NCBI GenBank assembly: GCA_964519975.1 | Contig: CAZFML010000001.1 | Location: forward strand, 1-28,812 | Direction of reading: 5' to 3' | From: an uncultured Planctomycetia bacterium | GTDB lineage: Bacteria > Omnitrophota > Gorgyraeia > Duberdicusellales > 4484-171 | Length of the DNA stretch: 28,812 nt | Part shown: positions 10,001 through 13,000 of the stretch, piece after piece | Position numbering within the stretch: the first letter of the stretch is position 1 | Layout: each line of letters begins with the position of its first letter | Translations under genes and position numbers: made by a program | Notes under the pieces: generated by a model | Told to the model about the DNA's origin: nothing | The model's database searches: none | The model's input: only the letters and a program-made list of their open reading frames with translations

Positions 10001-13000
10001 CAAAGCAATCAGCTGACTCTTTGGGTAGAGAACTGGTGGTTGTTCTTGATTGGGGTGGGCCAACTTGGCCAGAGGTAAGGGGTGAGAATAAAGAAGATTG
10101 TATCAGAATGGCTAGGAAGAAAAATCCTAAGGGAAAAGCAACCTGGTTTATAGGGAAACTCCGGCAGTATTTCAAATCGGAAGAAGAAAGAACCAACAGG
10201 ATGTTTCTTGAGGCAAAAAGAGGTAGAGTGGCTATTGAAGACCCATTTTTAAGGCCTTTACTTCAATGGTCGGCTGATAATCGAGTTTTGATTATACCCG
10301 AAGAGGTCGATTTAGGTGAGTGGCTTTCTGTCATGATGGGTGATGTCTATATTGATAAAGCAAACCTTATTGCTAGCACAGAAAGCCTTGCTGATTCATC
10401 TAGTCGAAGACAGTATATGAATTCTATGAATGTTTATGTAGATAATATGGCTAAGAATATGCGGGGAAGAAACAGGAGGGTGATAAATTTAGTTAAAAAG
10501 CAGGTTGTCGATGAAGGTAAAGCAGTTGTCTTGGCCTATGGCACTAACCATCGAGGTGTTTACGATGTCTTAAGTCAATTAATGCGTGGGAAAGGCTTTG
10601 AAGTTGAAGAAAAAGGTACCCCAGCTCCCGAAAGCATTATCTATGGCCCGGGAGATTTACCTGGTCTGGTAGCTGTTGGGATAGAGGTTCCCTATCAAAC
10701 AAGAGAACTGGTTTGTCTTCGTGATCTTATCGGTTCGCCTTTAAGAGCCTGCGCCAGAACTCATGGAAAGCATGATTTCCAGCTTCTTCTAGAGCGTTCT
10801 TATGAAGTTGTAGGCCAGTTAAGTTTGGAAGAAATAATACCGGTTATCGATCAAAATCAAGGTTCAGTTGTCAGTTTCAGAAGTTATCTAGAGACCTGGA
10901 TGAGACAAAGAGGCCTAGATGAACAAGCTGATTTCTTTTTCAAGGAGGCTACACCATCGAGAGCGGCAGAGCCAATTCTTTCCAGAGAGCAGATAGCCGA
11001 AATAACAGCCTACGAACTAGCTGGGGTTTCTGATAGAGAGGCAGCTCTTAAAACCAGTCAAGATCTGGACAGTTCAAGCGAACAATTTACTGAGAGTCAG
11101 CTTATTGCTTTCATAGGAAATCGCTATGATTTTCATCGGCAAAATAATTCTGGCTTGCCAGAAGCTACTTCTTTAGACAACGGCGGTCGGGCTAAGCTTA
11201 ACCCAGCTAGTAGCGCTAAAACTGTTAGGTTAACAAAGATGACACCTCAACAAGTCGAATACGAATTTAGAAAATTAATTGATCAGGGTTTAGAGCTTAA
11301 AGTTACCGGAGAGGCCAAAGCTGATCCAGGGGTTTTACTTTCCTGGGGCTACACTCCCAAATATAAAATTAGACTTTTTGATACCAGATATTATTTAACA
11401 AATGTTAGAGCTGATGTTGATGAAAGATTTTTTGTAGGTTATGTCTTACAAAGACATCCCAGAACCGGAAAAGAAATTATCTATGCTCGCTATTTTTATA
11501 AGGATTATTCTTTAATTTGGCGCTCAGCCTCTCACTATCATGGAACAGAACTGGAAAGCACCTGGCTTGGTAAGGGAGATATGAAAGCTGTTCTTGAAGA
11601 CGGAGAAGAGGTTTTTGTTTCCATGGAAGAAACAACCAATCTGCCTTTAGAGATTCAATCAACCCTTGATACAACTAGCAGAAAAGTGCCTTTTCTGCGT
11701 CAAGACTCGGAAGCCATAAGATTAATTATTCGCCGGGCTCCTTATAGTCGCTCAGAGCCTTATCGGGATTTTACTGCTCCGAGACTTGAAGCAGCACAAA
11801 GAAACGGTTCCATTAATAAGGGAAAAAGAATAGCTTATTTTACAAGAGAAAATGACCCTCGTTCTTTAAGATTTGTTAAGGCTTTTGAGCCGGATTACCA
11901 GAACGGAATTGTTGAAATTAGTATAGACCGAGGCGTGTTAAGTGAATTATATGGGGGGAGGGTGGAAAAATACAGAATCTTATCAACTAACAGAGAGTTG
12001 TGTTATCAATTTCTTGCAGGAACGGATATTGTTTGGGCTAACCCGCCTCAGGCAATGACTAGGCAACTTACTAGTTATGGAGTTAGACCTATTGATGTTA
12101 ATTTTGACGGTGATGCTTTCTTGTCGGGAGTGGATTACTACGAAGAAGATGAGACTAATGGTCAACCGACAGTTTTTACTCAAATTCCCCAAGGATACGT
12201 TGGAAGAATTAATCCGGTTTTGGAAAACTTAGCCGAGACATCCAAGTGGAATAACCGGTTACCGCATATTGAGGAGTTTAAAAAAAGAGTTTTGGGTAAC
12301 GGAAGAACAAGCAGAGTATATCTTCCAGGGATTTCCCTTGATAATGGCGGCCGGGCTAAATCATCTATCTTAGGCAATATTGACCGGAGAGATTTTTTAA
12401 AGAGTTCTGCAGGAGCTTTTGCTAGTTTTTATGGTGTAGGCGGCGTTGTTGCGGGAGAAGCGGTTACTGCAGGAGCTGTCCAGGCAGCTATTCAGGTTAC
12501 CAACAGCCAACTGATGAATGAGGTTACACAATGGCTTGCTGTTGAATGGGTTGCTGATCAGTCACCATTCATCACAGATGATATAGAGGATAACCCTTAT
12601 ACCTTTCTTGTTGATCGCAAGAAGGCAGGATTAATTTCTTTTATATTAGAGATGGGGGTTAAGCCTGGGTCAGCATTGTGTATCTGGTTAGAGAAACAAC
12701 TTCGCAGGCGACTTAATTTCTCGCTTGATCAAAGGATGCAGACAATCCTAGATAGAGCGGATAGGAATATTGCCTTAGGTCATCATTTAAGATGTGGTCT
12801 TACTAGTCAACCTAAGTACGCTGAGCTTGTTAGGCATGCAGAAGATTGTAGTGAATCTGCCCAACTTGCGGAAACAGTATTTCGTATGCATATGTTGCGT
12901 ACGAGTTTGCATGATTTAGCATCTGAAACATTGAAAGGCTTAGAACATCAAGCCCGGTCTTTGTACGACTTAACAAAGCAGGTTTCGACATTTTCTACAA

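Follow-up and report, generated by a model that had tools for sequence, protein, structure and literature searches.

A twin-arginine motif deep inside a giant frame

The window analyzed here is a stretch of 28,812 nucleotides (nt) from an uncultured bacterium of the phylum Omnitrophota (GenBank assembly GCA_964519975.1, contig CAZFML010000001.1, positions 1 to 28,812). It carries a giant open frame of 5133 amino acids (aa), counted from a TTG codon at position 457, within which lies an element that resembles an export signal of the twin-arginine translocation (Tat) pathway. The protein on record, P0003, starts at the ATG at 463 and comprises 5131 aa. The gene is chromosomal and is flanked by gyrA and an opp transporter operon. 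The frame is punctuated by 15 copies of a short peptide, [S/N][L/F][D/N]NGG, here called junctions, and the 16 modules that they separate range in length from 79 to 1033 residues. With gene-sized modules and a short recurring peptide, it has the make-up of the junction-punctuated giant frames of Omnitrophota. Codons vary freely across the junctions, drawing on five codons for Leu and all four for Gly, and the motif is therefore conserved as a peptide and not as DNA. The same variation rules out that the junction is a DNA-level repeat or a ribosome-binding site. The frame and the parts of the element are as follows:

457 to 15858, plus strand: giant open frame, 5133 aa from TTG 457, with 16 modules and 15 junction peptides
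12334 to 12351, plus strand: junction 13 (SLDNGG), the 13th of 15, presumed cut site that would make the N-terminus of module 14
12352 to 13293, plus strand: module 14, orphan of 314 aa ending in junction 14; all-helical by prediction
12352 to 12384, plus strand: n-region of 11 residues, with no ATG, GTG or TTG codon
12385 to 12402, plus strand: twin-arginine consensus RRDFLK (Pfam TAT_signal, 16.8 bits, below threshold)
12403 to 12456, plus strand: h-region of 18 uncharged, Gly/Ala/Ser-rich residues, mean Kyte-Doolittle hydropathy 1.09
12457 to 12489, plus strand: c-region with the signal-peptidase-type sites AGA↓V and VQA↓A, as read from the sequence

An earlier, sequence-only reading of the window had placed LDNGG and a Tat-type peptide at positions 12337-12492, about 3970 residues into the frame. 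Translation confirms both statements, in that the junction is followed by a basic n-region, RRDFLK, an uncharged stretch and the two AxA-type sites, and the twin arginines (RR) are residues 3977-3978 of the 5133-aa frame, or 3975-3976 of the recorded protein. RRDFLK follows the [S/T]-R-R-x-F-L-K consensus, with Asp in place of Ser/Thr before the arginines. The first 17 residues after junction 13 carry a net charge of +3, and the h-region and AxA-type c-region expected of a Tat signal are supplied by the 18 uncharged residues and the AGA↓V and VQA↓A sites, giving a predicted signal peptide of 42-45 residues in total. The c-region contains one Glu and no Lys or Arg, hence no basic "Sec-avoidance" residue, and in this respect is compatible with use of the general secretory (Sec) pathway. 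Ordinary N-terminal Tat signals (PF10518, TIGR01409) are alike in the RRxFLK core, the basic n-region, the weak Gly/Ala-rich h-region and the AxA-type c-region. They differ in that the signal of module 14 lies ~3,977 residues inside a frame, has Asp before the arginines, scores below the profile cut-off, lacks a basic residue in its c-region and is encoded in a genome in which, as in its nearest relatives, TatA and TatC were undetected.

The peak 12-residue hydropathy of the h-region is 1.58, compared with 2.4-3.2 in Sec-type signals of the same genome. In the related genomes described below, other RR-type signals reach 1.6-2.3, and the Sec-type signals that follow junctions in a congener reach 2.2-2.5. 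RR-type signals are consistently less hydrophobic than the Sec-type signals of the same genomes and form a class distinct from them. Because of this low hydropathy, the element has full Tat-type character, beyond that of a Sec signal that happens to contain two arginines. With a best 19-residue window of 1.42, the h-region is unlikely to be a membrane anchor.

No ATG, GTG or TTG codon occurs between junction 13 and the arginines, which rules out an internal translation start for module 14; consequently, only proteolysis could free its N-terminus. The sequence-only reading had argued that cleavage at the linker would expose a correctly spaced Tat signal. The spacing of 11 residues from junction to RR and the missing start codon bear this out, but the Tat machinery that such a signal would use was not found.

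Junctions and the signals that follow them in related genomes

We compared the source genome (G000, 65% complete) with a genome of the same genus (G145, 95%), one of the same family (G337, 92%) and more distant members of the phylum. A second polyprotein is present in G000 itself. All 14,880 nt of contig C19 (L026:1-14880, minus strand) read as a single frame of 4960 aa that runs off both contig ends and contains 11 S/N-L-D/N-N-G-G junctions. Modules of both G000 frames match inside a 45,891-aa frame of G145 (G145:C2:53363-191036) and a 58,052-aa frame of G337. The G145 frame has 96 L[D/N]NG junctions, and since these are mostly PLDNG[KR], the core common to the two congeners is LDNG. Modules shared by G000 and G145 align end to end with the module borders, from which it follows that modules are units of evolution.

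Other members of the phylum have other junctions. In G119, from another family of the same class, SLDNGG punctuates a frame longer than 6666 residues (G119:C12:250000-269999, minus strand); G337 has 154 copies of [A/S/V/G/T]SSP (G337:C2:1-174156); G012 has 20 copies of R-x-STSG (G012:C8:3-26882, minus strand); and G428 has five copies of TDPSGAAP (contig C37). Among 400 genomes of the phylum, LDNGG is strongly enriched only in G000, with a local cluster in G119. The variety of motifs suggests that junction peptides are lineage-specific and possibly matched to lineage-specific proteases.

Tat-like signals directly follow a junction in five cases, spread over four genomes and four junction motifs:

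G000, module 14: RRDFLK, 11 residues from junction to RR; orphan module
G145: SRRSF, 4 residues from junction to RR; lipobox-like Cys
G145: SRRDF, 14 residues from junction to RR
G337: SRRAFL, 3 residues from junction to RR
G012: TRRGFL, 20 residues from junction to RR; own Met just before RR; NAGPA module

The G012 signal heads a phosphodiester glycosidase (NAGPA-family) module, and the G012 genome is TatC-positive. Neither of the two RR-headed modules of G145 belongs to a Pfam family, and for one of them a search for near-length homologues found none. The RR-headed module of G337 gave only a spurious Pfam match, and searching 40 genomes of the family turned up no relative. Homology between module 14 and the SRRDF module of G145 is absent outside the signal region. 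Several further G145 modules open directly after a junction with textbook Sec signal peptides, complete with basic n-region, strong h-region and AxA site.

By a strict criterion, three of the four Tat-like hits in 120,702 residues lie no more than 35 residues after a junction, where 0.34 would be expected (Poisson 0.005). Signal-like segments in general were scored by a rule that asks for 13 uncharged residues with a mean hydropathy of at least 1.5, starting within 33 residues of the junction and preceded by Lys or Arg. Such segments follow 19 of the 121 junctions of G000 and G145 against a background expectation of 5.7 (binomial p = 4e-6), in a comparison that is post hoc and uses a crude hydropathy rule. 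Over the five residues that immediately follow a junction, the net charge is +1.1. The sequence-only reading had named enrichment of RRxFLK just after linkers as a check. That check is passed, in that signal-like segments are enriched and Tat-like motifs recur, although the exact RRxFLK was seen only in G000, where, combined with an uncharged h-region, it has a single instance in the six-frame open reading frames of the 872-kb assembly.

Several smaller features of these frames were also recorded. One C19 module begins with a hydrophobic helix pair directly after its junction. In the G145 frame, junctions occur as doublets spaced by 7 residues, and mini-modules 28-43 residues long lie between junctions. 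A mini-module of ~40 residues with PWLAG and IYIG(K) motifs recurs, flanked by junctions, in G000 (C19 modules 4 and 10) and in G145 (frame residues ~26376-26418 and ~36929-36971), and looser copies lie near residues 11080, 37483, 51591 and 55531 of the G337 frame. One module of the G119 frame starts, by eye, like glucose-6-phosphate isomerase, and housekeeping enzymes may thus occur inside giant frames of this kind.

Competing accounts of the module 14 signal

We tentatively favor the reading that the element is a genuine Tat-type signal that heads a gene-sized cassette, module 14, and that would become N-terminal once junction 13 is cut (probability roughly 0.45). According to this proposal, a protease would cut the giant chain at or beside the SLDNGG junctions, and the cut would leave module 14 with an N-terminus made up of the basic n-region, RRDFLK, the weak h-region and an AxA-type site, all of which can be read from the sequence. 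The released module would then be exported, and signal peptidase I would remove its first 42-45 residues. The cassette would most likely once have been a separate gene for an exported protein. Cleavage at the junctions is predicted from their peptide-level conservation and from the signals that follow them; the 15 junctions of the giant frame, conserved as peptides while their codons vary, and the 11 on C19 look like recognition sites.

The weak part of this proposal is the translocase. Neither TatC (PF00902) nor TatA (PF02416) was found in G000, G145, G337 or G119 with profile searches that matched in control genomes and in G012. A TatC protein from a member of the family, used as query at E ≤ 1, likewise had no match in those four genomes, and it recovered the G012 gene at 42% identity as a positive control. 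For G000 alone this absence is weak evidence, because signal peptidase I, which is present in the relatives, is also missing from the 65%-complete assembly. Judging from G145 and G337, however, Tat is likely to be truly absent from the lineage, and since TatC occurs in 7 of the 29 genomes of the family and 77 of the 151 of the class, it was probably lost in this sub-lineage. Because TatC and TatA went undetected in G000, in its 95%-complete congener and in G337 alike, Tat-dependent export of module 14 is unlikely; it would need tatAC genes in the 35% of the genome that is unassembled. The other route would be Sec, used inefficiently.

Apart from these negative TatC and TatA searches, several results weigh against the reading that we favor. 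Compared with native Sec signals, the h-region is much weaker, which would make it a poor Sec signal. The Pfam TAT_signal profile PF10518 reached 16.8 bits (E = 0.0065) against a curated cut-off of 22.7, in a test that is insensitive, as the G012 signal, canonical by eye, was also unmatched at E ≤ 0.01; the NCBIfam profiles, including the Tat profile TIGR01409, gave no match at E ≤ 0.1. An exhaustive HMMER search of 1.84 billion representative proteins found no homologue of module 14, and hence there is no sign of selection on its signal. The enrichment after junctions did not extend to the looser SSP junctions of G337 (8 segments vs 7.3 expected by the same crude rule), and the enrichment statistics have the post hoc character noted above. 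In the five TatC-positive genomes of the family that were tested (G347, G352, G360, G382, and G410), LDNG is at background level. TatC went undetected in the giant-frame genomes of the family that were examined, whose junctions are of the LDNG type in G000 and G145 and of the SSP type in G337; in this small sample of related genomes, the split may be a phylogenetic coincidence. Finally, no C39 peptidase domain was found in G000 or G145. The C39 double-glycine peptidase was considered as a junction protease and set aside, being undetected in G337 as well. In G119, a C39 domain does occur, in a separate frame of 17,608 aa.

The other searches with module 14 gave a similar picture. A near-length, word-indexed search of a 5.8-billion-protein database, and searches of the 400 genomes of the phylum and of giant proteins, returned only the polyprotein itself, and a sequence search of the PDB gave no match. 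The AlphaFold2 (AF2) single-sequence model is all-helical and unreliable (pLDDT 42), and was too poor for a fold search.

The strongest rival, also raised as an alternative by the sequence-only reading, is that the signal is a relic. Module 14 would derive from a Tat substrate that once had its own gene and was captured, or shuffled in as a cassette; Tat would have been lost and the signal would no longer work, with the frame kept open only because a stop codon would cost the downstream peptidase-like and sigma factor modules. We regard this as credible, at somewhat below even odds, and as nearly as good an account of the data as a working cassette signal. Lineage loss is what TatC and TatA being undetected here and in the nearest relatives would imply, given that half of the class (77/151) retains TatC, and the h-region is too weak for efficient use of Sec. 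Drifting sequence would be expected to look as module 14 does, an orphan whose fold is modeled at low confidence; in addition, both Tat-like motifs of the congener are degenerate, and in G012 a Met of the module's own still immediately precedes RR, a trace of gene capture. A dead signal would not, however, be expected to have all three parts intact and a perfect RRxFLK core. G337, which is also TatC-less, has a near-perfect motif directly after a junction, which makes repeated accidental survival less likely, and the G000 assembly from which Tat is missing is the one that lacks even signal peptidase I.

A second rival holds that the chain is never cut, and it concerns the modules on either side of module 14:

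6730 to 9828, plus strand: module 11, membrane glycosyltransferase of family GT2 (Pfam PF13632, E = 8.6e-25; hydropathy scan)
13294 to 14253, plus strand: module 15, M23-peptidase-like (Pfam PF01551, 27.2 bits, just under cut-off; hydropathy)
14254 to 15855, plus strand: module 16, sigma-70 factor (Pfam PF04542 and PF04545)

In this account, the product is one giant membrane protein in which RR marks an internal start-transfer or Tat-dependent segment, following helices of module 11 that are inserted by Sec, in the manner of the dual Sec-Tat protein Sco2149 or of internal signals in flavivirus polyproteins. Tat signals ordinarily have free N-termini (PMC5449189). However, internal ones are documented in dual Sec-Tat membrane proteins, namely the Streptomyces Rieske protein Sco2149 and its relatives (PMC3471235; PMC5449189), so that a free N-terminus is not strictly needed. 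The premise of the sequence-only reading that Tat signals work only at the N-terminus was thus too strict (PMC5449189). Nor is the signal independent proof of processing, for which that reading had offered it as support, since such signals can also work inside a chain that has not been cut. Module 11 does supply upstream helices, and published analyses take Omnitrophota giants as single membrane-anchored proteins (10.64898/2026.06.07.730766). Sco2149-type proteins are alike in that a weakly hydrophobic segment follows a twin-arginine motif inside the chain. They differ in that their arginines occupy a short loop on the cytoplasmic side, directly behind an even number of Sec-inserted helices and ahead of one weak helix and a cofactor domain, whereas here RR follows a repeated junction peptide and no Tat machinery was found. 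By hydropathy scan, module 11 is the sole carrier of strongly hydrophobic transmembrane helices in the giant frame, and its last helix ends ~940 residues upstream of RR, not adjoining it; Pfam recognized no cofactor family in the frame.

The downstream modules pose a further difficulty for an uncleaved chain. Hydropathy revealed no transmembrane segment between module 16 and modules 14 and 15. Because no stop-transfer helix separates the M23-like and sigma modules, the sigma factor would be exported along with the peptidase-like module. An uncut chain also leaves the peptide-level conservation of 15 junctions unexplained. The conserved junction peptides, the weak h-region and the missing helix between the M23-like and sigma modules make this account hard to reconcile with the data, and we consider it improbable.

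Pure chance, in which a basic, Gly/Ala-rich stretch merely resembles a signal, would fit the sub-threshold Tat profile scores and the lone instance in the G000 genome but is very improbable, given that composition predicts 0.007 occurrences of RR.FLK in the giant frame, that a simulation puts a relaxed motif with at least 13 uncharged residues in any of the 15 post-junction windows at p ~0.006, that RRDFLK sits only 11 residues past a junction, and that the same arrangement reappears in relatives.

Taken together, the observation made in the sequence-only reading was confirmed and its interpretation was partly supported. Extending the cassette interpretation to the phylum, it is conceivable, at a little under even odds, that Omnitrophota giants are polyproteins cut at lineage-specific junctions, with modules sorted by their own Sec, lipoprotein or Tat signals. 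If so, Tat-type signals would be kept in lineages without detectable TatA or TatC, pointing to a Tat-independent use or an unrecognized translocase.

Precedents and genomic setting

Omnitrophota giant proteins reach and exceed 100,000 residues (10.64898/2026.06.07.730766), and the literature has yet to settle whether they function whole or after being cut up. West-Roberts et al. proposed that they are possibly cleaved, at cleavage points that were unknown (West-Roberts et al., 2023; 10.1101/2023.11.21.568195), and a 2026 preprint filters out signal-peptide calls inside the chain, treating them as artefacts of chunking (10.64898/2026.06.07.730766). Term searches of the 2023 and 2026 preprints found no mention of repeated junction peptides or post-junction signals. 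Literature searches with the junction string and with "bacterial polyprotein" returned only unrelated matches or nothing relevant. The frame described here belongs to the same phylum as those giants, and shares modules with the 45,891-aa and 58,052-aa frames of its genus and family. Signals placed after junctions lead to the prediction of neo-N-termini at the junctions and of a separate localization for each module. A word of caution is also in order, as a perfect Tat-type signal in a lineage without detectable Tat is not proof of Tat export; such signals may instead record the history of captured genes.

Viral polyproteins, such as those of the Flaviviridae, combine short protease sites with internal signal sequences, and the papain-like protease of coronaviruses cuts after LxGG. 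The giant frame resembles them in joining many unrelated units through short conserved junctions, here ending in GG, with some units headed by signals. It differs in being a chromosomal bacterial gene, and in that the junctions vary by lineage (LDNG(G), SSP, STSG, TDPSGAAP).

Apart from modules 11, 15, and 16, most modules of the giant frame belong to no family recognized by Pfam or NCBIfam. Module 15 has no signal of its own by hydropathy. A role at the cell wall, if it has one, would require a different way out of the cell, and co-export with module 14 is speculation. Its sequence contains an HLHFE motif, and the usual histidine of H-x-x-x-D is apparently shifted by one residue.

Downstream of the giant gene, positions 15923-28811 encode an opp-type ATP-binding cassette (ABC) transporter operon, a glycoside hydrolase with a Sec signal, a type II secretion pseudopilin, a lysyl-tRNA synthetase and an FtsX/MacB-type permease, which is an ordinary chromosomal context. 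The lysyl-tRNA synthetase is 74-82% identical to its counterparts in metagenome-assembled genomes of Candidatus Omnitrophota.

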